Shown one piece after another: positions 15,984-24,558 of a stretch of 64,000 nt of DNA. The DNA is from an uncultured Gemmatimonadaceae bacterium. Its GTDB lineage: Bacteria; Gemmatimonadota; Gemmatimonadetes; Gemmatimonadales; GWC2-71-9. Made by a program: the position numbers and the translations under genes. Location: NCBI GenBank assembly GCA_964599725.1, contig CAZRGT010000016.1, positions 34,351 through 98,350 on the forward strand. The letters are read 5' to 3'. How positions within the stretch are numbered: the first letter of the stretch is position 1; the number at the start of each line of letters is the position of its first letter. The notes under the pieces are model-generated. The model made no database searches and had not been told where the DNA came from. It saw only the letters and a list, made by a program, of their open reading frames with translations.

Positions 15984-16387
15984 TGGCCACCATCGTCGTA
16001 GTGGAGGATCAACCGGACAGCTTGAAGCTCCTTTCCACGCTGCTGTCACTGCGTGGACACCTCGTGATTCCGCTGGCCAGCGGCGACGGACTGATTGAAA
16101 CGATGCGCCGGCCGTCTCCCCCACCGGATCTCGTGCTGCTCGATATCCAGCTCCCCGGTCGAGATGGGTATGCGTTGCTGCAGGATCTGAAGGCACTCGA
16201 GGGCGACCACCGCTGGAAGGTGGTCGCCCTCACGGCGCACGCGATGCCGGCGGATCGCGCGAAGGCCCTCGCCGCCGGCTTCGACGGCTACATCACGAAG
16301 CCGATCGACATCAGGACGTTCCCGACCGAGGTCGCGGCGCACTTGCCGGCGGGACCGGGGGGGGAGGGACCGGCGGGCGTGGCGTAG
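15983..16387 (+). CDS. Single-domain response regulator (CheY/DivK-like)
   Basis: VVED, LLDIQLP, LTA, YITKPI; TGATG overlap with kinase. Confidence 0.93.
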   Translation: MATIVVVEDQPDSLKLLSTLLSLRGHLVIPLASGDGLIETMRRPSPPPDLVLLDIQLPGRDGYALLQDLKALEGDHRWKVVALTAHAMPADRAKALAAGFDGYITKPIDIRTFPTEVAAHLPAGPGGEGPAGVA

Positions 16388-17306
16388 TGGCCGGCCGCGG
16401 CGGCGTGGGCGCCATCCCGAGCTTCCGCAGCTCCACGTCGCCGGTCACGGTGGTGAGCTTGATGGTGCGACCACCCTTCCCCAGCGTGCCCGCAATCGCG
16501 TGTGACGCGAACTTGCCCGAGACGACCAGCGGATAGTCGCTCGCAATGTCTCCCGCGACGGTATGGCCCTCCACAACGGCATCCACGTTGTCCGGCAGGA
16601 CGACGACGGCATCCCCGTGCACGGTTGTGACGTTGACGTCGCCCGGATCAGCAAAACCACGCATCGTCGCGTTCACGTCGCCGTTGACAGTCGCCGCCCG
16701 GACCGGACCGGCGCTTGTTTCGACCGTGATGTCGCCATTGACCGTGCCGACGACAACCGGCGCCGAGACACCGTTGACTTTGACATCGCCGTTCACGGTG
16801 GACGCGTCCAGCTTGACGCCGCGCGGCAACTGCACGGTAAACACCACGGCGACGTCGTTGCCGTGCAATCCGCCCTCAGTGGAATAGTGGCCGTCGGGTC
16901 CGCACTCGACCGCGTGCCCGGGCCACATCGCACACACGGTGAGACCGCGTTCCGATTCGGCGGTGACGATCCGCACCGAATCGACCCGCGAATGCTTGTA
17001 ACTGCGATCGGCGACGATCTGGACCTGCCGGCCTTCGCCGGGCTCCACGGCAATCGAGCCATTGATGTTGCGGAGCCACAGCGTGCGCTGGACCGGGACC
17101 GCCGTCACGTAGCTCCAGGGTTCGGCGTGGTGGCGGTCCGGCGCCAGAAAATCCGTGTCGAACTGCTGACGGAGCCCTTCCAACTGAGTGCGTCCGCGCC
17201 CCACCAAGCGGAGGACGAACAACCCGCCAACGATTACGATCCCGAAGATCATTGCGCCGCGCAGAATCTCTCCGCGCCACCGTAGCCAGAATTCCTTGCC
17301 GTTCAT
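16311..17306 (-). CDS. DUF4097-like (putative adhesin beta-repeat) membrane-anchored protein
   Basis: N-terminal TM; repeated STVNGDV/TVNGDI/TVHGD/TVTGDVEL; Pro-rich tail. Confidence 0.85.
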   Translation of the reverse strand: MNGKEFWLRWRGEILRGAMIFGIVIVGGLFVLRLVGRGRTQLEGLRQQFDTDFLAPDRHHAEPWSYVTAVPVQRTLWLRNINGSIAVEPGEGRQVQIVADRSYKHSRVDSVRIVTAESERGLTVCAMWPGHAVECGPDGHYSTEGGLHGNDVAVVFTVQLPRGVKLDASTVNGDVKVNGVSAPVVVGTVNGDITVETSAGPVRAATVNGDVNATMRGFADPGDVNVTTVHGDAVVVLPDNVDAVVEGHTVAGDIASDYPLVVSGKFASHAIAGTLGKGGRTIKLTTVTGDVELRKLGMAPTPPRPATTPRPPVPPPPVPPASAPRPRSGTS

Positions 17307-17349
17307 ATGAAGCCCCCCGCAGGGTGACGATGCCAAAGCTCGCCGACCC

Positions 17350-17375
17350 TACGGGGGGTGGAAAGTGCCGGTTTC
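17350..17375 (-). promoter_or_regulatory. ECF-sigma-type promoter for DUF4097 gene
   Basis: GAAAC-N17-CGTA. Confidence 0.45.
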
Positions 17376-17399
17376 GAGTCAGTTCAGGCCCGGCGGGAC

Positions 17400-17654
17400 T
17401 CAGCTCCCACCCGACGAGCAGGTGGACCCCGCAGGCGTCGCCAGTCCGACCGGGGCAACGCCCTCGACCAGGATAGGCGCCAGTGTGCCGCCATACCAGA
17501 GGCGACCCGTCGGCACCAGCGAGGGCGGCCCCGACTCCGTCTTGAGGGGCGAGTTCCGAGAATGTGATGCCCGCTCACCCGCAATGGCCCGGCCGCCCGC
17601 CAGCGCGACGCCGAGACTCAGGATTGACACGAGCGCCAGTGAGATGGTCCTCAT
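17400..17654 (-). CDS. Small secreted hypothetical protein (84 aa)
   Basis: AAGGAGG RBS, signal-peptide-like MRTISLALVSILSLGVALAG, WYGGTLAPILVEG motif. Confidence 0.7.
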   Translation of the reverse strand: MRTISLALVSILSLGVALAGGRAIAGERASHSRNSPLKTESGPPSLVPTGRLWYGGTLAPILVEGVAPVGLATPAGSTCSSGGS

Positions 17655-17682
17655 AATGCCTCCTTGATTTCTCATCTCGTAT

Positions 17683-17708
17683 GACGCAACCGCGCTTCCG
17701 ATCGTTGC
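17683..17708 (-). promoter_or_regulatory. ECF-sigma-type promoter for small protein
   Basis: GCAAC-N17-CGTC. Confidence 0.45.
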
Positions 17709-17752
17709 GGCAACGGTGTCCGAGACGCGTCAGGGCTATTAGCTTTGCTGCC

Positions 17753-18523
17753 GTGACCGGCCTCGCGCGATTCCGGGATCTCCTCACTCAGCTCATTCTC
17801 CGGGACCTGAAGTCCCGCTATAAGCAGACCTATTTCGGGGCGCTGTGGGTGTTCGGCCGCCCGCTGGTCGAGCTGGGCGTGTACGTGCTCGTGTTCGGGG
17901 CGTTTCTTCGTGCACCGTCGGACGGCGTGCCGTACCCGCTGTTCGCGTTCTCCGGTGTCGTGCTGTGGAGTTTCGTCTCCGGCGCCATCTCTCGCGGCGC
18001 CCGCAGCGTCCAAGGTGAGGGAGGCCTCGTCGCCCACGCACCGTTTCCCAAGGCGACGCTGCCCCTGGCGGCGATCGTAGGGGCGTTGCTCGATTCCCTC
18101 CTCGCCGCCGCCATGTTGGGCCTGCTGCTCGCCGTCCAACACGTCGTTCCGTCCCCGAGCGCCTGGCTGTTGCTGCCGATTGTCGCGATCCTCGGCATCA
18201 TGGTCACGGGGCTGGTGTTGATCGGCTCGGCGCTGAACGTCTTCTATCGCGACGTCGGACATCTGGTCGATCTCGGAGTGCGTGTCTGGCTGCTGCTCAC
18301 ACCGGTCGCTTATGCCCGCTCGGTGGTGCCCCCACAGTATCAGACGCTTTACAACCTCAATCCGCTCGTTTCGCTGTTCGACCTCGCCCGAGCCGCCCTG
18401 CTGGGCACGGGGGTGGTTCGTCCCGAGGCGATGTGGTACCCACTCGGGGTGGGGCTCGTGTTTCTCGCCGTCGGTGTGGTGGTGTTCCGCGCGGCCGAGC
18501 CGTATTTCGCCGAGTCGGTCTAG
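17753..18523 (+). CDS. ABC-2 permease, Wzm/TagG type
   Basis: RDLKSRYKQTYFGALW, FPKATLP, YRDVGHL, LNPL; about six TM segments; GTG start. Confidence 0.92.
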   Translation: MTGLARFRDLLTQLILRDLKSRYKQTYFGALWVFGRPLVELGVYVLVFGAFLRAPSDGVPYPLFAFSGVVLWSFVSGAISRGARSVQGEGGLVAHAPFPKATLPLAAIVGALLDSLLAAAMLGLLLAVQHVVPSPSAWLLLPIVAILGIMVTGLVLIGSALNVFYRDVGHLVDLGVRVWLLLTPVAYARSVVPPQYQTLYNLNPLVSLFDLARAALLGTGVVRPEAMWYPLGVGLVFLAVGVVVFRAAEPYFAESV

Positions 18524-18527
18524 GCTC

Positions 18528-19745
18528 ATGGCGATCACCGTATCGGGAGTCTGGAAGCGCTACCGGCTGCGGAGCGAGTCGCTCAAGGAGCTGGTGATCG
18601 GACTGCTGCCGCGCCGACGACGCGGCCCGCCGCCCCGGCCCAAGTCCCTGTGGGCGTTGTCGGACGTGTCGTTTCATGTGGAGCGCGGCTCGACCTTCGC
18701 CCTGGTGGGAGCCAACGGGTCGGGGAAGTCGACCATGCTCAAACTGATCGCCGCCATGATGAAGCCCACGCGCGGATCGATCCATGTGGACGGCCGGCTG
18801 TCCCTGCTCAGTTTTCTGGGCGGCTCCTTCCATGGCGACCTGACGGGGCGGGAGAACGTCTTCCTGGAAGGGGCGCTGCTCGGCCTCACACGGAAGGAGC
18901 TGCGCGCCAAGCTGGACGCCATTTTCGACTTCGCCGGCCTCGAGGAATTCACCGACGTGCCGGTGAAGTTCTACTCCTCGGGAATGGCGCTCCGGCTCGG
19001 GTTCGCGATCGCGGCGCACATCGAGCCAGAGGTGCTGCTGATCGACGAAGCGTTCGCCGTCGGCGACACGGCATTCCGCGACCGCTGCCTGGGGAAAATG
19101 CTGGACTTCAAGGCGGCGGGCACCACCATGGTTCTGGTGTCACACGAGCGGTACCTGGTCGAGCAGCTGTGCGATACCGCCGTGCTGCTCGACCACGGAC
19201 ACACCGTGGCGAACGGGCGTCCCGAGGAAGTGTTCGCGGCCTACGAGCGGGTCAACGAAGCGGCCGAAGCGGCGACGGACGAAGACGATCTCGAGGGCGA
19301 ACCGGTGCGCTCTCCGCTCCAGATCGAGCGGGTCGAGATCACGGGCGGTGAAGGCGAGGACGTGCCCCTGTTCCGACCCGACGACGCCCTCGTGGCGCGG
19401 GTGCACCTCCGGGCGCAGCGGGACATCTCCGGCGGATCCCTGGGGATCCAGGTCGCGCGCGAATGGCATGTCCTGCACGGGACGCGCTGCAACCGCCAGG
19501 GCATCGAGATCAACGCTCGAGCCGGCGAGCGACTCACACTCGAGATCGAGTACCGCCCGCTCTCGCTGGCGCGCGGGTCCTACGCGCTCCATGTCCTCGT
19601 GTACGAGCACCGACTCGCGGTGGAACCAGTGCTGGTCCTGAAGCGGGCGGCGCGCTTTCGGGTCACGCTCCCTGAGGCGGAGGGCGTGGGCCTCATCCGT
19701 CTCGCCCACACCTGGCGCCTGTTGAACGGCGGCGACGCGCCCTAG
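18528..19745 (+). CDS. ABC ATPase, Wzt/TagH type with C-terminal Wzt_C-like domain
   Basis: GANGSGKST, YSSGM signature, LLIDE, LVSH; about 160-aa C-terminal beta domain. Confidence 0.92.
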   Translation: MAITVSGVWKRYRLRSESLKELVIGLLPRRRRGPPPRPKSLWALSDVSFHVERGSTFALVGANGSGKSTMLKLIAAMMKPTRGSIHVDGRLSLLSFLGGSFHGDLTGRENVFLEGALLGLTRKELRAKLDAIFDFAGLEEFTDVPVKFYSSGMALRLGFAIAAHIEPEVLLIDEAFAVGDTAFRDRCLGKMLDFKAAGTTMVLVSHERYLVEQLCDTAVLLDHGHTVANGRPEEVFAAYERVNEAAEAATDEDDLEGEPVRSPLQIERVEITGGEGEDVPLFRPDDALVARVHLRAQRDISGGSLGIQVAREWHVLHGTRCNRQGIEINARAGERLTLEIEYRPLSLARGSYALHVLVYEHRLAVEPVLVLKRAARFRVTLPEAEGVGLIRLAHTWRLLNGGDAP

Positions 19746-20743
19746 GCGCCGGCACGGGCGCGCTCACTGGTCCACCACGCGAGCGCCTTCCTCAGTCCGC
19801 CGGACGGCTGCAAGTGCCGCAGCACCGCCAGGCGCAGCCCGAGCGCGCGCTCGAGATCGTACGGCGTCACGCGCCCAGCCAGAGCCACCGGTGGCTCCAC
19901 ACCCGCCAGCTGCGTGGCCGCTCCGAGCCACGCTCCCGCGGCTGCCCCGTCCACGATCTCTTTGGCATCCAGTCGGCGTGCGATCTCGGACCAGTCCACC
20001 GGTACACCGCTCGCCCAGATGACCGCCGCATCAAACAGCCGCACCAGTAGGAATGCATAATCGGGAATCAACAGGCTATGCGCCGTGGCGCTCCAGAACA
20101 ACTCCGTTGCCGACGGCACGCGAAACCGGATCCCCGAGCGTTCCACGTCGATCCCCGCATCGTGGTAACGCTGCCAAGCCACGCCCGGGTTCACTCCCTG
20201 AGCGTATGTGGTGTGGAGCTCGACGCCGACCCGGCGTTGACTCCACAGGGTGGGCAAATGGTGATGTTGCGGTCGCGGGGGCTTGGTTGGTGATGTCCGA
20301 TCATATCCCCGCCTCCGGAGGTCATGCCAAACCTCCCGGGCGTGGGCCAGCGGAACCAGAACATCAACGTCATTGGTGACGCGGGCGTCGGCGAACGGAT
20401 AGCGGTCCACGGCGAGCCGTCGCGCCACACCCTTCAAGAACACCGCCGGCATGTCGATCTCATGAAAGATCTCCGCCAATGCCTGCGCCTCCGCTTCGAT
20501 CAGCAGATTCCGAGCGGTCTCTTCACGCGCCTGCGCGGAGACCCACGCAGCCAGCTCCGGGTCGATTCGGTCCATGACCCCCAGTTGGCGGAGCCGTCGG
20601 TACAGCCAAATGGCACACCCCTCGAACGCCACTAGGCGCCTCATCCCTGTCCCCTCGGTGGTCCCCCACGCGGGGGCCAAGTGCTCAGGCGGGAGACCCC
20701 CGCGGAATCGGAGGGTATCGATCAGCAGCCGCGCCGAATTCAC
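19742..20743 (-). CDS. Nucleotidyltransferase family protein (NTP_transf_5-like, as found in lasso/RRE clusters)
   Basis: FLKGVA...Y...R...DVDVLV, HHLP...VELH. Confidence 0.85.
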   Translation of the reverse strand: MNSARLLIDTLRFRGGLPPEHLAPAWGTTEGTGMRRLVAFEGCAIWLYRRLRQLGVMDRIDPELAAWVSAQAREETARNLLIEAEAQALAEIFHEIDMPAVFLKGVARRLAVDRYPFADARVTNDVDVLVPLAHAREVWHDLRRRGYDRTSPTKPPRPQHHHLPTLWSQRRVGVELHTTYAQGVNPGVAWQRYHDAGIDVERSGIRFRVPSATELFWSATAHSLLIPDYAFLLVRLFDAAVIWASGVPVDWSEIARRLDAKEIVDGAAAGAWLGAATQLAGVEPPVALAGRVTPYDLERALGLRLAVLRHLQPSGGLRKALAWWTSERARAGA

Positions 20744-21174
20744 GCTTCGACGACGGCGGGGCGCGCCTCTGGAAACCGGGCGATGACGGTATGGCGTTGC
20801 GGGTGCTCGGGATGGGACTCCAGATAGGGCTCACCACCGCGGACCAGCCAGGCATGGGCCCCCAATGGCGACGGACCGGACTTGTGAACGCCAATCCAGA
20901 GCTCGACCGGGCGGCCGGCGCGACGCAGGAGATGATACAGGACGGCCGCGCGCTTGAGGCAGGTCCGGCGCCACGGATTGGGCAGGTTGCGGAGCAGGCG
21001 GTCCACCCACCGGGCCAGGGATGCGTCGTCCAGATCCTGAGCCGGGGGCCGGCTGCCGCGCCCGCCCAACCAGCCCGCCAGACGGGAGAAGGAAACGAGA
21101 TAGAGCAACGGTGGGACCACGGCCACCATGGCGGTGGCCCGCAGGCGCCACGTCAACGGCAGGCGCGCCGTCAC
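20740..21174 (-). CDS. Lasso-type leader peptidase (B2, transglutaminase-like)
   Basis: TCLKRA catalytic Cys, LWIGV, AHAW catalytic His; GTGA overlap. Confidence 0.9.
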   Translation of the reverse strand: MTARLPLTWRLRATAMVAVVPPLLYLVSFSRLAGWLGGRGSRPPAQDLDDASLARWVDRLLRNLPNPWRRTCLKRAAVLYHLLRRAGRPVELWIGVHKSGPSPLGAHAWLVRGGEPYLESHPEHPQRHTVIARFPEARPAVVEA

Positions 21175-21443
21175 GCGCCCTCGACCACCAGCAGGTCTGC
21201 CGTGCGACACGTGTCGAGGAATTGCCGCACGCTGGCTTCTGCCTGCTCCGGCGTCACCTCGTATTGCTCCACGAGCAAGCGCACCAGCTCGTCCACGGAT
21301 CGCGGCGCTTCGAGCGCCTGCAACAGGATCAGGCCGCTCTCGGTCACGGAAAAATAGCGGCGCGTTCCCAGATGCAGCACGACCCCGTCGCCTTCGACGT
21401 CGGCGAGGCGCAAGTCCGGATGTCGGATGTAACGTTGGCTCAT
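21171..21443 (-). CDS. RiPP recognition element (PqqD/B1 family)
   Basis: VEGDGVVLHLGTRRYFSVTESGLILLQAL...VEQYEVTPEQAEASVRQFL, 90 aa. Confidence 0.92.
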   Translation of the reverse strand: MSQRYIRHPDLRLADVEGDGVVLHLGTRRYFSVTESGLILLQALEAPRSVDELVRLLVEQYEVTPEQAEASVRQFLDTCRTADLLVVEGA

Positions 21444-22357
21444 GTGACGAGCTCGATCAGACGGTTCGGTCGGGAGAACAAGTCGCGCCCCAACGTAACC
21501 CGGTAGCAACGCGCCTGCCCGGTCAGTCGTGTCAGCACGTTCAGGTGGTCCTGCGCCAGGTCGGGCTCGAGCATCACCCATGCGGACCACCGCACCAGCT
21601 CCGCCACCGCCCCCCGCCGATCCAGGGGCTTGGCGCTGGTCTTGGCGTTTCCCACGGCCGTGAAAATAACGACCTCCGGGTCGACGAGGGGGGTCCAGAC
21701 ACCCCCCAGATCCTCCGGCCGGTATCCGGTCTTCCCCCGATCGGGGAGGGATACCCCCCCGGCTCGGGCGAGTAGCCCCAGGCCGCCATCGCGCAGGGCG
21801 ATGGGCGCGCGACAGGTGTGCACGATGATGCGATCGCCGCGGCGCTCGAGGAACGCCGCGTCATCTGTTCCTACGCGCCAACCCGACGCCGCCAACAGGG
21901 CGGCGGTCGTGGACTTTCCCGCATGCGCGTTGCCGGCCACGAGCCAGCCACGGCCCTGCGGGTCAATCGCCGTCGCCGCGTGCAGGTGATACCAGCCCAC
22001 CCGCCGCAGCAAGACGATCAGGACCACCATCAGGAAGGTGCGGGTACAGAGCTCGAGCTTTTCAACCGCGGCCGGGGAAAGACGGATCGACGCCGTAGCA
22101 GCATCGCCAGGAACTTCGGCGATCGCGGGGGCTTCCTCCCACAACACGCGGAGGCCCCGACCTCCGGGGCCTCGCGCGAAGCGCACCTGGGGTTGCTCGA
22201 AAACGACCTCCGTCAGCGCCGGGATCGCGGCGGCCGAGACCGAGACGTCCAGAACCAGGCCGGGTGGCGCCGCGAGGGATAACCTCGCAAGCCATCCCTC
22301 GAGGACCGCCTTGACGGAGACGTCGCTGCATCGAATCTCGATGGCGGGGGCAGACAT
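21440..22357 (-). CDS. HPr kinase-related P-loop kinase
   Basis: HLHAA, GNAHAGKSTT Walker A, GTDD acidic pair. Confidence 0.85.
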   Translation of the reverse strand: MSAPAIEIRCSDVSVKAVLEGWLARLSLAAPPGLVLDVSVSAAAIPALTEVVFEQPQVRFARGPGGRGLRVLWEEAPAIAEVPGDAATASIRLSPAAVEKLELCTRTFLMVVLIVLLRRVGWYHLHAATAIDPQGRGWLVAGNAHAGKSTTAALLAASGWRVGTDDAAFLERRGDRIIVHTCRAPIALRDGGLGLLARAGGVSLPDRGKTGYRPEDLGGVWTPLVDPEVVIFTAVGNAKTSAKPLDRRGAVAELVRWSAWVMLEPDLAQDHLNVLTRLTGQARCYRVTLGRDLFSRPNRLIELVT

Positions 22358-22451
22358 GGCTCAAAAAAGCCTGCTCAAAGCGCCAAACGCCAGGCCGCGG
22401 GAAGCGACCTGGCGCATGGAGGTAGAGACCCTACAGGACTAGGAGCTGCGA

Positions 22452-22477
22452 CCGCCGTGACGGAAACCGCGAGGCGG
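22452..22477 (-). other. Stem-loop just 3' of precursor gene
   Basis: CCGCC...CGG-AAA-CCG...GGCGG imperfect hairpin 8 nt past the stop; no U-tract. Confidence 0.45.
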
Positions 22478-22485
22478 AACAGGCA

Positions 22486-22653
22486 TCACGCCGAGCGACC
22501 GCCCTGCTGCGTGCGGCTGGCCAAGTTGCCCTGGCTGTTGGTCGAGTTGCCGCGCGTCGGCTGGCCGAGCGACACGAGCGTCACGCCTTCCAGCGACGCC
22601 TCTTCTGTCAGCTTCGGGGCCACGAAGGGTTTGCGCGTTGGTTTCTGCTCCAC
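22486..22653 (-). CDS. RiPP precursor peptide, 55 aa, lasso-type leader
   Basis: GGGAGG RBS 7 nt before GTG; MEQKPTRKPFVAPKLTEEASLEGVTL-VSLGQPTRGNSTNSQGNLASRTQQGGRSA; FxxPxL and penultimate Thr; first gene of RRE/B2 operon. Confidence 0.85.
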   Translation of the reverse strand: MEQKPTRKPFVAPKLTEEASLEGVTLVSLGQPTRGNSTNSQGNLASRTQQGGRSA

Positions 22654-22691
22654 GATGAGCCTCCCTTTTCCGGTGAATGTCGCCGCTGGGT

Positions 22692-22719
22692 ACACTACGC
22701 CGTCGCAGTGCTATAGCAA
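22692..22719 (-). promoter_or_regulatory. Promoter for precursor operon
   Basis: TTGCTA-N16-TAGTGT; -35 overlaps palindrome TGCTATAGCA; a weak sigma54-like GG-N10-GC overlaps the same site. Confidence 0.45.
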
Positions 22720-22867
22720 GTCTCACGCCCCTGTAACCCTGCATCTGGCGCCCACTCTAACATATTGCAATACAACTGCTTACCTGGGCTGGCATCGATC
22801 GATGGAGTCGCCTTCGGAGTCTGCTCGCCACAAACTCCCCCACGCCTTGTAGCGAGACTACCACGGT

Positions 22868-23212
22868 CTAACGCGGCAAAGTGAGCCAGCCAGCCACGAG
22901 TCCTCCAACTTGAGCGACGATCGCGATGGGCAAGGACAACCGTCGCGCGCTGGCATGCTCAGACTCGATGACCAAGAAGGTGACGAGGAGCGCCGCAAAG
23001 AAGGGCCAATTGGCCTGCAGATGGAAAAAATGAAGGATGCCGTCCCCGGTCCAAGCGGCGGCGAAGCCACCAGCGAGCGAACCCAACAGCATGGCAACCT
23101 GTTTGGCACGGCGAAACGGTAGCGCGCCGAGCGGCAGGAACACCACGAGGCCGACCAGCGCAGCCAGGACCGCGCAAGCGAATCCAACCGCATATCCGAG
23201 GACTGTCTTCAT
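22868..23212 (-). CDS. Small integral membrane hypothetical protein (about 4 TM)
   Basis: MKTVLGYAVGFACAVLAALVGLVVF...; AGAGG RBS right after tRNA. Confidence 0.7.
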   Translation of the reverse strand: MKTVLGYAVGFACAVLAALVGLVVFLPLGALPFRRAKQVAMLLGSLAGGFAAAWTGDGILHFFHLQANWPFFAALLVTFLVIESEHASARRLSLPIAIVAQVGGLVAGWLTLPR

Positions 23213-23224
23213 AGGCCTCTTACG

Positions 23225-23308
23225 TGCCCGGGGCAGGACTCGAACCTGCATGGGGTTGCCCCCAAGGGATTTTAAGTCCCTTGCGTCTACCGATTTCGCC
23301 ACCCGGGC
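23225..23308 (-). tRNA. tRNA-Leu (anticodon TAA), CCA not encoded
   Basis: GCCCGGG acceptor stem, TGGCGAAATCGGTAGACGC D-arm, GGGA-CTTAAAA-TCCC anticodon arm, long variable arm, GTTCGAGTC T-loop. Confidence 0.96.
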
Positions 23309-23318
23309 CGGTTCAATG

Positions 23319-24473
23319 TTATATCACGCGCTCACGCCGCGCGCCCGGACCCGGGCGGACCACACTCATGGCGGGCTCGCGACCATAGGCCCGAGCAAAC
23401 GCCCGCCGGATCGCCGCGGCAATCGCACGCTCGCGCCGCTCGGTACCCTCCGCCGGCCCCACCACGATGAGCCCTGCCCCTCCCCATCCGGCGCCGGTCA
23501 GCCGGGCTCCCCAGGCCCCGGCGCGCCGTGCGGCCCGCACCGCGAGATCGAGCTCCGGCGCACTGCATTCGAACCAGCGGCGACACGACTCGTGTGAGGC
23601 ATCCACCAGCCGGCCAAACGCCCGCAAGTGTCCACGCGCCAGGAGGGCGGCAGCCGCCCGGGTTCGCCCCGTCTCCGTCACGACATGCATGGCCCGGGAC
23701 CGCAGCGGATTCGCCAGCAGCCGCCGCAACGCCAGAACCCGCCGGAGCGGCCAGTCGGCGAGGTTCGTCAGACCAGGCGTCGAGCGCGCCAAGGTGGCCA
23801 GCGCAGCCTCGCATTCCGCTCGCCGCTCGTTGTAGGCGCTCGCCGCGAGATCGTGGCGCGCCCCCGTGTCCACGAGCAACAACCGCGCCCGCACGGGGAT
23901 GTGCCGGTATCGCCCCGTCGCGCATTCGATCAATAAGGCATGGCCGGCGCGAGCGCGTACGGCAATGGTTTGATCCATGATGCCGCAGCGCACACCCACG
24001 TGCTCGTGCTCGGCCCGATGCGCCACGGTCACCAACTCAAAAGGCGTCAGGGCGACGCCCGCGAGGCCTGCGAGTGCGCGTCCGGCAGCCACGGCAAGCG
24101 CCGCCGAGGACGCAAGACCCGCGCCCGCCGGGACCGCACTGGCCACCGCGAGACGCGCGCCGTCCGGTGCCGCGTCCCGCCCGGCTAGCTCCCGCATGAC
24201 GCCCACGATGTACCCGGCCCACCCGGCGGGAAGCGGGCCATCCCAGCGGACCCGTACCGGGAGGTCATCCCGTGACGAAACGAGGTCAAGCCAGCCCGGT
24301 TCGCCGGGACCCACGACGACGGTCGTCCGTTCCATCGTGGCGAACGGCAGAACGGGACCCCCGTTGTAGTCGGTGTGATCACCGATCAGGTTCACGCGTC
24401 CGGGCGCACTCGCCGCGTGCGTCGGCGCACTCCCGAACGCCGTGCGGAATAGCGCTATCGCCTGTGCTCGCAT
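23319..24473 (-). CDS. galK: Galactokinase
   Basis: APGRVNLIGDHTDYNGG, GAGLASSAA, CGIMDQ, GARLTGAGWGG. Confidence 0.92.
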   Translation of the reverse strand: MRAQAIALFRTAFGSAPTHAASAPGRVNLIGDHTDYNGGPVLPFATMERTTVVVGPGEPGWLDLVSSRDDLPVRVRWDGPLPAGWAGYIVGVMRELAGRDAAPDGARLAVASAVPAGAGLASSAALAVAAGRALAGLAGVALTPFELVTVAHRAEHEHVGVRCGIMDQTIAVRARAGHALLIECATGRYRHIPVRARLLLVDTGARHDLAASAYNERRAECEAALATLARSTPGLTNLADWPLRRVLALRRLLANPLRSRAMHVVTETGRTRAAAALLARGHLRAFGRLVDASHESCRRWFECSAPELDLAVRAARRAGAWGARLTGAGWGGAGLIVVGPAEGTERRERAIAAAIRRAFARAYGREPAMSVVRPGPGARRERVI

Positions 24474-24558
24474 CGGTTTGACAAGGGTTAGGGCCAATGG
24501 TACCGTACCGCTGCCGGTTCCACCATCGCCACTTCTTCCGTCTCACAGGGACACTCGA

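Follow-up and report, generated by a model that had tools for sequence, protein, structure and literature searches.

To our knowledge, the characterised substrates of Wzm/Wzt, TarGH and KpsMT pumps are all lipid-linked glycans, and we know of no peptide substrate for a pump that bears a Wzt_C domain. The locus described here raises the question of what such a pump might carry when its genomic partner is an operon for a RiPP. It is located in a stretch of DNA of 64,000 nucleotides (the window), whose host is a Gemmatimonadales bacterium from soil or sediment, and it comprises a seven-gene Gemmatimonadota module composed of a minus-strand peptide operon and a convergent wzm-wzt pair. According to the original prediction, the pump might recognise a peptide capped with a phosphate or an NMP, or else a polymer primed by a peptide, and substrates of this putative kind are plausible. 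In the literature we found no paper tying Wzt to lasso peptides or RiPPs.

The exporter and its junction with the peptide operon

From 17681 (or 17753) to 19745, the plus strand encodes an ABC-2 permease followed by an ATPase of the YSSGM type that carries a Wzt_C domain. The gene coding for the Wzm-like permease (17681..18523, +; PF01061, ABC2_membrane, 54.9 bits) could start at ATG 17681 (280 aa) or at GTG 17753 (256 aa), the latter being favoured as the likelier start by homologue calls of 256-264 aa. The PDB sequence matches of the permease include TarG (6JBH, E 5e-21) and A. aeolicus Wzm (6M96, E 1e-15) as well as KpsM and TagG, which places it in the Wzm/TarG fold, and 43 of its positions are at least 95% conserved across 23 loci.

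The ORF of the Wzt ATPase (18528-19745, +; 405 aa) consists of a nucleotide-binding domain of the YSSGM signature type (18528..19277, +; ABC_tran, 72.5 bits) and a beta-rich Wzt_C domain of the carbohydrate-binding type (19278..19745, +; PF14524, 43.3 bits with a cut-off of 30.4). In the former, the signature reads FYSSGM, 39 Wzt orthologues show no variation in Walker A, Walker B, the catalytic Glu or the H-loop, and the PDB comparison yields 8DKU at E 9.5e-57. An AlphaFold model (pLDDT 81) and A. aeolicus Wzt (8DKU/7K2T) can be aligned along the entire model, the Foldseek comparison giving 30% identity over 419 aligned columns (E 6e-36). The best NCBIfam and PDB matches of the ATPase are TagH, Wzt and TarH; orthology with a named exporter (TagH, galactan Wzt, KpsM) is unsupported, as the NCBIfam equivalog scores stay far under their cut-offs (e.g., 182 against 538, and 163 against 400). 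By sequence and fold taken together, the closest system is the A. aeolicus WzmWzt O-antigen transporter, including its carbohydrate-binding domain, followed by TarGH, TagGH and KpsMT. Sequence and fold thus agree with the original prediction of a Wzm/Wzt-type glycan exporter.

In canonical systems, the Wzt C-terminal domain reads chain-terminating caps, as is the case for E. coli O9a Wzt. In the clade of the window, a specific block in this domain (REWHVLHGTRxxRQG, KRxARFR and HxWR) is at least 95% conserved across 22 loci, whereas in a sequence alignment the A. aeolicus domain does not share the conserved W/H/R residues of the clade. Altogether, about 49 of the 155 positions of the domain are at least 95% identical, many of them being Arg, His or Trp, while the peptide tails are hypervariable.

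The wzt gene (+) and the NTase gene (-) converge in a 4-bp overlap of their stop codons, CTAG at 19742-19745, in which TAG at 19743-19745 terminates the plus-strand gene and CTA at 19742-19744 is the minus-strand TAG closing the PF14907 NTase ORF. The claim that the permease and the YSSGM-type ATPase converge on the nucleotidyltransferase with overlapping stops could therefore be verified, and the identical 4-bp overlap is found in L002, L009 and L010.

The peptide operon and its precursor

The minus-strand operon contains the genes for the precursor, an HprK-like kinase, a PqqD-type RRE, a B2 protease and the NTase, and the catalytic motifs of its enzymes are intact. Next to the exporter lies the gene for the PF14907 (NTP_transf_5) nucleotidyltransferase (19742..20743, -; 79.2 bits), in which G105 and a D125-x-D127 motif are at least 95% conserved across 51 loci; a PDB sequence search gave no relative of solved structure, and literature on PF14907 is essentially non-existent. 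It is followed by the gene for the lasso-type B2 leader peptidase, a transglutaminase-like Cys protease (20740..21210, -; PF13471, 66.1 bits; NF033537 lasso_biosyn_B2, 68.2 bits, above the 33-bit cut-off), whose true start is probably at 21174 and whose Cys84 and His119 are at least 95% conserved across 53 loci. The PqqD-type RiPP recognition element (B1; 21171..21443, -; PF05402, 55.5 bits) corresponds to an annotated gene of 90 aa on the public contig. The HprK-like peptide kinase (21440..22357, -) is recognised by weak Hpr_kinase_C, TIGR04352 and ScmC matches over its P-loop region, GxxxAGKST, which is invariant. By sequence, its PDB comparison yields HprK matches at E 0.13 only, and a literature search gave no mention of an HprK-related kinase family.

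The precursor peptide gene (22486..22653, -; 55 aa), which is called in the public contig, has a GTG start with a GGGAGG ribosome-binding site 6 nt 5' of it, and codes for the leader VEQKPTRKPFVAPKLTEEASLEGVTL and the core VSLGQPTRGNSTNSQGNLASRTQQGGRSA. Among 58 distinct homologous precursors the leader is conserved, with the motif (K/R)(K/R)PFVxPxLxEEASLxxVTL, and the core is hypervariable, with tails of 2-45 aa. Core position 2 is Ser or Thr, followed by Gly-Gly, in 52 of the 58 distinct cores. With lasso competence defined as G/A/S/C at core position 1 together with D/E at positions 7-9, a single one of the 58 cores would be able to form a lasso ring, and the core encoded in the window has no acidic residue. 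Cores linked to an exporter have a median length of 28 aa, compared with 12 aa for the others, and they are also more cationic and contain more His; the core-length correlation is phylogenetically non-independent, the exporter-bearing loci belonging mostly to one clade.

With respect to transcription, an abundant and discrete transcript segment covers the precursor ORF (22427..22685, -), represented by a 259-nt contig from run X3, for which the label RNA-Seq is a guess. The depth of this contig is 163, compared to 1-7 over the enzyme and exporter genes, so that by contig depth, which is a crude measure, the precursor lies about 30-fold above these two similarly low groups of genes, while the depth of the DNA run X1 is flat at 21 over the region. 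The contig ends at 22427 on one side and reads into Illumina adapter sequence at 22685 on the other. The precursor is accordingly expressed in situ, as seen in run X3 with its guessed RNA label. Between the precursor and kinase genes lies a 12-bp GC-rich hairpin (22387..22415, -; RNA fold of 22358-22490, z-score -3.1), which is a candidate attenuator or 3'-end stabiliser. A strict sigma-70 promoter scan over 17300-22900 gave zero matches. By eye, TTGCTA and TAGTGT, separated by a 16-nt spacer, can be seen to precede the apparent RNA end (22685) by 6 nt, which constitutes a weak match.

Linkage of exporter and cassette across genomes

Six Wzt orthologues that were looked up (ten loci, L002-L011; 55-84% identity over the matched region) all adjoin NTase-B2-PqqD-kinase genes, with outer flanks that differ. 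When metagenomes were scanned for the motif R[ED]WH[VI]LHG of the C-terminal domain, 43 loci were obtained, in 38 of which the NTase gene is at most 600 bp away; in one more the distance is 670 bp, and of the remaining loci two are situated at contig ends and two are without the NTase. Of the informative metagenome loci with a window-type Wzt C-terminal domain, about 39 of 41 thus adjoin the cassette, and their flanks are varied. As had been predicted, the exporter is joined to a cyclase-less kinase-RRE-B2-NTase operon, and this junction is kept across many genomic contexts.

In the reverse direction, 45 cassette loci were informative, all of them from Gemmatimonadota and with each species represented by a single genome; the exporter is adjacent to the cassette in 23 of them, and 22 have no adjacent exporter. 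Homologous RiPP loci that lack the exporter, which would speak against the original prediction, hence account for half of the cassettes; a placement of the Wzt orthologues in ordinary polysaccharide loci, which would do so as well, does not hold, the orthologues occurring almost never away from the cassette. From the half of the cassettes that are devoid of an exporter it follows that the pump is either inessential to the pathway or encoded elsewhere. All-against-all clustering of flanking ORFs, based on crude ORF calls and with three lower-GC loci having fallen out, revealed neither a substitute exporter nor a conserved neighbour in the 22 exporter-less loci.

Loci with an exporter occur at scattered places in the kinase tree, and the distances among the kinases are correlated with those among the Wzt proteins (Mantel r 0.92, 0 of 2000 permutations), for which shared vertical descent could suffice. 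The pattern is consistent with an old linkage of exporter and cassette and its repeated loss. In addition, L060 and L063 possess a second Wzm/Wzt architecture that is co-directional with the cassette, with a Wzm 30% identical to that of the window and a Wzt_C domain without detectable similarity to its counterpart there; a Wzt-type pump has been recruited to the cassette at least twice. The near-constant position of the Wzt-domain loci beside the cassette, their varied flanks and this second pump type together show that the adjacency is not due to chance.

Sugar genes, cyclase and other neighbours

A Pfam scan of the 40 largest ORFs in the window (about 18 small ORFs lie outside this set) detected no glycosyltransferase, polymerase, OPX/PCP or Asn-synthase-type cyclase gene, and the scanned ORFs outside the module are housekeeping genes. 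Nor is there a glycosyltransferase or polymer-synthesis gene in the conserved module. As for the cyclase, the contiguous cassette leaves no space for such a gene in about 100 loci, and a macrolactam synthetase gene was found neither in the window nor in the 10-kb flanks of ten loci with precomputed Pfam hits.

The original prediction that glycosyltransferase, sugar-nucleotide and polymerase genes are missing from the neighbourhood therefore holds for canonical glycosyltransferases and polymerases, with the qualification that one sugar gene, for a galactokinase (23319-24497), is located upstream of the precursor gene at a distance of about 0.7 kb. The prediction also overlooks PsmN, the uncharacterised NTP transferase whose gene has the same position in the pseudomycoidin cluster, and which is required for the addition of one or two hexoses (+162/+324 Da) to phospho-Ser (PMC6993621). 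As a sugar donor, galK was rejected, since it adjoins the cassette only in the window-syntenic clade and in L042 (RecN-galK synteny) and does not do so elsewhere; it looks like a syntenic neighbour and not like a part of the module. Likewise, a DUF4097/LiaG-like gene and a small secreted ORF (17400-17654, -) were rejected as pump partners, both being confined to the syntenic clade.

A possible pathway

We infer, with about even confidence, that the operon product is a linear RiPP and a cyclase-less relative of the LPP (Linear Polyphosphorylated Peptides) of Bacillota (Popov et al., Nat Commun 2026; PMC13381572), and that Wzm/Wzt is its dedicated but dispensable phospho(glyco)peptide exporter. 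In such a pathway, the PqqD-type RRE would bind the conserved leader motif, the HprK-like kinase would phosphorylate, perhaps repeatedly, the conserved Ser three residues past the leader Thr, the B2 cysteine protease would cut off the leader, and the PF14907 NTase would cap the phosphate, most likely with one or more hexoses or with a nucleotide-derived group. The wzm-wzt pair would serve as the inner-membrane exporter for the resulting anionic phospho(glyco)peptide, and the Wzt C-terminal domain would dock the invariant phosphate or phosphoglycosyl cap and not the hypervariable tail.

A peptide-O-P(-P)-O-sugar head would resemble the polyprenyl-PP-sugar head of Wzm/Wzt, TarGH and KpsMT substrates, which would explain why such a pump was recruited. 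In turn, because a pump class with a cap-reading domain, known only for pyrophosphate-linked glycans, has been recruited at least twice, a phosphate-sugar-like head group is to be predicted for the mature peptide. By analogy, the part of the "missing glycosyltransferase" may be played by the NTase: given the role of PsmN and the scoring of LppN, the LPP transferase, as NTP_transf_5, i.e., in the Pfam family of the window NTase (supplementary data, PMC13381572), the cassette may make its own glycan-like cap. Against assigning the cap chemistry to the NTase weigh the inactivity of LppN in a heterologous host (PMC13381572) and the possibility that PsmN merely supplies substrate to a host glycosyltransferase (PMC6993621). 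Binding assays of the C-terminal domain with modified peptide would be a route to the missing modification, and, if confirmed, the substrate would be the first peptide substrate of a Wzt-type pump.

Alternative explanations

Alternatively, the phospho-Ser might act as an acceptor in the manner of undecaprenyl phosphate, of which it would be the protein analogue. Enzymes encoded elsewhere would build a glycan or polyol-phosphate chain on it, with Wzm/Wzt threading the peptide-PP-glycan processively through the inner membrane and some lineages passing the product on to OPX and PCP proteins for the outer-membrane step. This is unlikely, since there is no glycosyltransferase or polymerase gene in the conserved module or among the scanned ORFs of the window, and since the hypervariable tails of 2-45 aa resemble RiPP products and not carriers. 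It would be in line with the fact that Wzm/Wzt channels are known for polymers only, and with the presence of PCP (GNVR/CbiA), OPX (Poly_export/SLBB) and GlmS genes on the wzm side in L006/L007, L010/L011 and L102-L105. These loci represent two kinds of context; in L010/L011 the OPX gene immediately precedes wzm, and in the others it is one or two genes off; however, OPX/PCP genes occur only in a minority of the exporter-bearing contexts. Further points in its favour are that a GT4-like gene (L040) and an MBOAT gene (L053) happen to come after the cassette in two exporter-less loci, that PsmN is able to add more than one hexose (PMC6993621), and that LPP and paeninodin clusters of Bacillota reside in capsule loci, their final product never having been found. 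The claim that the phospho-Ser peptide is a ribosomal carrier replacing undecaprenyl phosphate, with a glycan or phospho-polymer on peptide-O-P(-P) that is exported by Wzm/Wzt with or without OPX and PCP, appears quite unlikely; if true, it would imply a peptide-anchored surface or secreted polymer and would explain why LPP-type clusters situated in capsule loci have yielded no detected final product.

It is also quite improbable that the pump moves an ordinary lipid-linked polysaccharide, with the phosphopeptide of the cassette joining the glycan, ending the chain, or regulating export via the C-terminal domain. The family membership of the pump, the cap-reading function of the canonical C-terminal domain and the capsule-locus context of relatives would all suit such a role, but polysaccharide genes are absent within at least 10 kb in the window and in most other contexts, and the window-type Wzt occurs practically only together with the cassette, contrary to expectation for a pump that serves polysaccharides in general.

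In other RiPP systems, export or immunity is served by ABC-2 pumps such as McbEF (microcin B17) and LanFEG, and the pump might, in a similar way, expel or exclude the peptide for self-protection or as housekeeping efflux, with no reading of a cap and with Wzt_C as an inherited passenger. The long, cationic, His-rich cores linked to the exporter would suit membrane-active or metal-binding peptides, and Wzt of the L010/L011 lineage is without the C-terminal domain, while L060/L063 have an unrelated one; a single conserved cap-reading site is hence not universal, which also counts against the pathway proposed above. The strong conservation of the domain in most exporter-bearing loci (the roughly 49 of 155 positions given above), however, argues for a maintained ligand site, and the second, independently recruited Wzt also carries a Wzt_C domain. 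Efflux of this kind is very doubtful. Finally, although the pump is absent from half of the cassettes, a fortuitous and functionally meaningless adjacency is extremely improbable in view of dozens of loci that share the convergent, often stop-overlapping junction amid unrelated flanks, and of the junction with the second pump type.

Comparison with known systems

Like the WzmWzt transporters (A. aeolicus 7K2T/8DKU; E. coli O9a), the pump of the window has its ABC-2 permease as a protein of its own, beside a YSSGM ATPase whose C-terminal domain is a beta-sandwich, but in contrast to the O-antigen systems it has no glycosyltransferase or O-antigen genes nearby, its genomic partner being a RiPP cassette. 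L006/L007, L010/L011 and L102-L105, where the ABC-2 pump lies beside PCP and OPX genes, resemble KpsMT-KpsE-KpsD (S. thermodepolymerans 8TSH/8TSL); here, however, the PCP is of the GNVR/CbiA (Wzc-like) type, and neither the window nor most of the contexts contain PCP/OPX genes. McbEF and LanFEG are likewise pumps of the ABC-2 fold that are dedicated to a ribosomal peptide, but their ATPases are not known to have the YSSGM signature, to be of the Wzt/TagH type or to carry a Wzt_C domain.

The clusters of the phosphorylated and phosphoglycosylated lasso peptides (paeninodin, pseudomycoidin) likewise combine an RRE, a B2 protease, an HprK-like kinase and an NTP transferase gene beside a transporter gene, and their leaders share xxPxL and Thr at -2. 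The window cassette thus has the lasso RRE (B1) and B2, but neither a macrolactam synthetase nor, with one ring-competent core in 58, the cores of a lasso family; moreover, its conserved Ser lies close to the N-terminal end of the core, whereas that of the phosphorylated lasso peptides is C-terminal, and the exporter type differs. A survey of marine Gemmatimonadota counts antiSMASH "lasso" clusters only.

The cassette also resembles the LPP, which have been reported as restricted to Bacillota (PMC13381572). Both families are without a cyclase and share a discrete PqqD RRE together with an HprK-like kinase and a transferase of the NTP_transf_5 family; their loci encode between one and three precursors, which are conserved at the N-terminus and hypervariable at the C-terminus, and occasionally have a capsule-locus context. 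The spacing F1-P4-L6-L12-T16-S19 of the window family equals that of the LPP consensus YxxPxVLxHQxIxFETxxS, the Ser of which is the polyphosphorylated residue (PMC13381572), while the other residues differ and phosphorylation in the window family is a prediction. On the other hand, LPP clusters use a signal peptidase I of the archaeal type, whereas the window module has B2 and no SpI gene, and their exporter is MsbA-like (the published domain table lists ABC2_membrane twice vs 99 for the MsbA model; PMC13381572), whereas the window cassettes have Wzm/Wzt or no adjacent exporter. The locus would therefore extend the linear phosphorylated RiPPs described in 2026 from Bacillota to Gemmatimonadota, a diderm phylum, with two non-homologous part swaps, B2 standing in place of the signal peptidase and Wzm/Wzt in place of MsbA.

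Linkage of the exporter to the cassette

The association of the Wzm/Wzt exporter with the cassette (precursor, HprK-like kinase, PqqD RRE, B2 protease and PF14907 nucleotidyltransferase, NTase) is real and conserved, and no earlier description of it was found in the literature searched. As originally described, the permease and the YSSGM-type ATPase converge on the NTase at CTAG 19742-19745, where the ATPase stop TAG (19743-19745) overlaps the stop of the minus-strand NTase ORF. Ten loci with Wzt orthologues (L002-L011, from six look-ups; 55-84% identical in the matched region) all have wzm-wzt facing NTase-B2-PqqD-kinase plus a small ORF, and their outer flanks vary; the kinase of L006/L007 had no gene call but was found by tblastn. 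The C-terminal-domain motif R[ED]WH[VI]LHG, searched in metagenomes, picked out 43 loci: the NTase lies at most 600 bp away in 38 and 670 bp away in one, two loci are at contig ends, and two lack it, L109 clearly and L110 with just 0.9 kb of room.

In turn, a kinase-alignment scan of one genome per species yielded 59 loci, every one from Gemmatimonadota. Where the sequence continues far enough past the NTase to tell (45 loci), 23 carry the exporter and 22 do not, and no other shared neighbour was found in the exporter-less loci. The co-occurrence check proposed originally thus comes out almost complete from the side of the exporter, where nearly all Wzt-motif loci adjoin an NTase, and about half from that of the cassette, where 22 of 45 loci lack the pump: the dependence of the exporter on the cassette is close to absolute, and that of the cassette on the exporter holds in about half of the species.

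In a neighbour-joining tree of the kinase, exporter-bearing loci are scattered amid exporter-less ones, and kinase and Wzt distances are correlated (Mantel r 0.92), a signal that shared vertical descent would equally give; on these sequence comparisons, the pattern fits an old linkage with repeated loss. The locus L030 (11624-14118), sister to the clade of the window, occupies the same chromosomal site with DUF4097 directly after the NTase and without wzm-wzt, and marks a clean presence/absence polymorphism. Two further loci, L060 (12739-14700) and L063 (2455-4400), have a second Wzm/Wzt type after the NTase on the strand of the cassette (Wzm 30% identity to that of the window, Wzt NBD 46%), and the Wzt_C domain that this Wzt carries (Pfam 50.5 bits) bears no detectable similarity to the one in the window.

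The exporter and its C-terminal domain

The Wzm-like permease (Pfam ABC2_membrane) is encoded on the plus strand from ATG 17681 or GTG 17753 to 18523, the GTG start, which had been proposed originally, fitting homologue lengths better. The Wzt-type ATPase (405 aa; 18528-19745, plus strand; signature motif FYSSGM) matches Pfam ABC_tran and Wzt_C, the latter at 43.3 bits against a 30.4-bit cut-off. Among solved structures, its sequence comes closest to A. aeolicus WzmWzt, an O-antigen transporter (8DKU/7K2T, E ~1e-56), with an alignment that extends into the C-terminal domain; further relatives are TarH, TagH, mycobacterial Wzt and KpsT, and those of the permease are TarG, Wzm, KpsM and TagG. 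In Foldseek, an AlphaFold model of the ATPase built on 39 orthologues (pLDDT 81) matches A. aeolicus Wzt over its full length (30% identity in 419 columns, E 6e-36). Because the top NCBIfam equivalog models (TagH, galactan Wzt, KpsM) score far under their cut-offs, the pump belongs to the glycan-exporter family and is orthologous to no named system.

In the Wzt C-terminal domain, some 49 of the 155 positions are conserved at 95% or more over 22 loci, in blocks including REWHVLHGTRxxRQG, KRxARFR and HxWR, and the residues of A. aeolicus Wzt aligned with these positions differ. That many of these conserved residues are basic or aromatic, while the peptide tails are hypervariable, suggests recognition by the domain of something anionic and invariant, which might be a cap (phosphate or phosphoglycosyl) or else the xSGG at the N-terminus.

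Precursors and their expression

On the minus strand, the cassette runs from the precursor gene (55 aa, 22653-22486, with a GGGAGG ribosome-binding site) through the HprK-like kinase (22357-21440; matching in the P-loop region), the PqqD RRE (21443-21171; PF05402) and the lasso-type B2 protease (21210 or 21174 to 20740; NF033537, 68 bits vs 33) to the NTase (20743-19742; PF14907, 79 bits), and contains no cyclase. Catalytic residues are conserved family-wide, namely the kinase P-loop, Cys84 and His119 of B2, and G105 and D125-x-D127 of the NTase. In L005 (2195-3769), B2 and NTase form a single 524-aa protein (PF13471 + PF14907); such fusions have been reported for some Firmicutes lasso clusters.

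The core peptide of the window, VSLGQPTRGNSTNSQGNLASRTQQGGRSA, has no acidic residue, and only one of 58 homologous cores is competent for a lasso ring. Each locus encodes one to three precursors. Among the 58 distinct ones, the leader (K/R)(K/R)PFVxPxLxEEASLxxVTL is well conserved, and the core starts with x-(S/T)-G-G (Ser/Thr at position 2 in 52), followed by a hypervariable tail of 2-45 aa. Cores of exporter-bearing loci are longer than those of exporter-less ones (median 28 vs 12 aa, p 2e-5), more cationic (p 0.003) and richer in His (p 3e-6; all Mann-Whitney), p-values that overstate independence because most exporter-bearing loci fall in one clade. Many cores, in L006/L007 (~13.1-14.7 kb), L010/L011, L014/L017 and L019-L021, consist of His/Gly repeats (HGHGHGHG...) or are rich in Arg/Lys/Asn, which by composition suggests metal binding, as in metallophore-type peptides, or a polycationic function. 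Two to three tandem precursor genes with identical leaders and very different cores occur in L002, where one copy has a two-residue core (GS), L015, L023, L024, L027, L030, L038, L041, L048, L049, L056 and L062.

In the DNA run X1, contig depth is flat at ~21 over DUF4097, wzm-wzt, the enzyme genes and the precursor ORF. The public freshwater-sediment run X3, whose RNA-Seq label is a tool's guess, holds 60% of the region's sampled words; by the crude measure of contig depth it reaches 16-18 over DUF4097, 2-6 over wzm-wzt, 1-7 over the enzyme genes and 163 on a 259-nt contig over the precursor ORF (22427-22685, minus strand). This profile matches what RiPP clusters usually show, namely precursor mRNA in great excess, and is to be read with the guessed label and crude depth in mind. 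The contig enters Illumina adapter sequence at 22685, probably the RNA 5' end. Just downstream of the contig, between precursor and kinase genes, lies a 12-bp GC-rich hairpin (22387-22415, minus strand; z-score -3.1), followed by a U-containing tract, which may be an attenuator or processing site setting the precursor-to-enzyme transcript ratio. The DUF4097/LiaG-like gene (Pro-rich tail) and an 84-aa secreted ORF (16311-17654, minus strand, divergent from wzm) have 3-8 times the depth of the exporter in X3.

Possible substrates of the exporter

We give about an even chance to a reading in which Wzm/Wzt is dedicated to carrying the linear phospho(glyco)peptide, once mature, across the inner membrane, is dispensable, and was recruited for head-group likeness: a peptide-O-P(-P)-O-sugar head would resemble polyprenyl-PP-sugar. 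The exporter offers a concrete, testable clue to the final peptide modification.

It is unlikely that a peptide-primed polymer is exported instead, a reading favoured by two types of context in which OPX, PCP and GlmS genes lie on the side of wzm. Among the 40 largest ORFs of the window, a Pfam scan found no glycosyltransferase, polymerase, OPX/PCP protein or Asn-synthetase-like cyclase, which bears out the original statement that no glycosyltransferase or polymerase gene lies in the accessory block of the window. Genes for PCP (GNVR/CbiA), OPX (Poly_export/SLBB) and GlmS surround exporter and cassette in L006/L007 (1191-9233), L010/L011 (5788-9170) and L102-L105, and resemble a complete trans-envelope export set; in L010/L011, OPX directly precedes wzm, and a sigma-54 regulator and a histidine kinase lie on the far side of the cassette.

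Quite unlikely, too, is that the pump serves an ordinary polysaccharide pathway, which the peptide would then decorate or regulate. The non-module ORFs among those scanned are housekeeping (acetyl-CoA carboxylase, S1, cmk, aroA, Ser/Thr kinase, two-component pair, DUF4097, galK, FadL, GDSL lipase, recN, dxs, folD, RNase Y, pheST, arginine deiminase, recJ, dnaG, mutS2, dnaJ, hrcA and dprA), in a window of 68% GC whose close protein relatives with a taxon name are all Gemmatimonadales or Gemmatimonadota. Just upstream of the precursor, on the minus strand, lie a 114-aa small membrane protein (22868-23211), tRNA-Leu(UAA) (23224-23308) and galactokinase (galK, 23319-24497); L002/L003 likewise have gene calls for galK and the 114-aa ORF, galK is called in the whole syntenic clade, and both are absent from contexts outside it. 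Assigned by eye, an MBOAT (AlgI/DltB-like) gene with a partner in exporter-less L053 (5457-7872) and a GT4-like glycosyltransferase in exporter-less L040 (5503-6747), both after the cassette, may point to further connections with surface-polymer chemistry.

A generic role in export or immunity, with no cap being read, is likewise quite unlikely; in its favour, the Wzt of L010/L011 (250 aa) has no C-terminal domain. Chance adjacency is scarcely credible beside the recurrent linkage.

Comparison with known peptide systems

The system represents a variation on a RiPP type that was described only recently, the Linear Polyphosphorylated Peptides (LPP), reported in 2026 from Bacillota and stated to be restricted to them (PMC13381572). 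There, core Ser3 is the residue that the kinase polyphosphorylates, the transferase showed no activity on heterologous expression, and the supplementary domain table lists ABC2_membrane 2 times against 99 for the MsbA model (PMC13381572). The same table assigns the transferase to NTP_transf_5 (PMC13381572), the Pfam family of the NTase in the window. The LPP precursor consensus YxxPxVLxHQxIxFETxxS (PMC13381572) and the Gemmatimonadota leader FVxPxLxEEASLxxVTLxS share the spacing of aromatic1, P4, hydrophobic 6 and 12, T16 and S19 and differ in their other residues; by this spacing, the last Ser of the latter corresponds to the phosphorylated LPP residue.

As for the glycosyltransferase missing nearby, a candidate answer within the cassette is the NTase itself, because PsmN of pseudomycoidin, an uncharacterised NTP transferase likened to it by its matching cluster position, is needed to put one or two hexoses (+162/+324 Da) on phospho-Ser (PMC6993621), and its DxD mutant is dead (PMC6993621; reviewed in PMC8498205).
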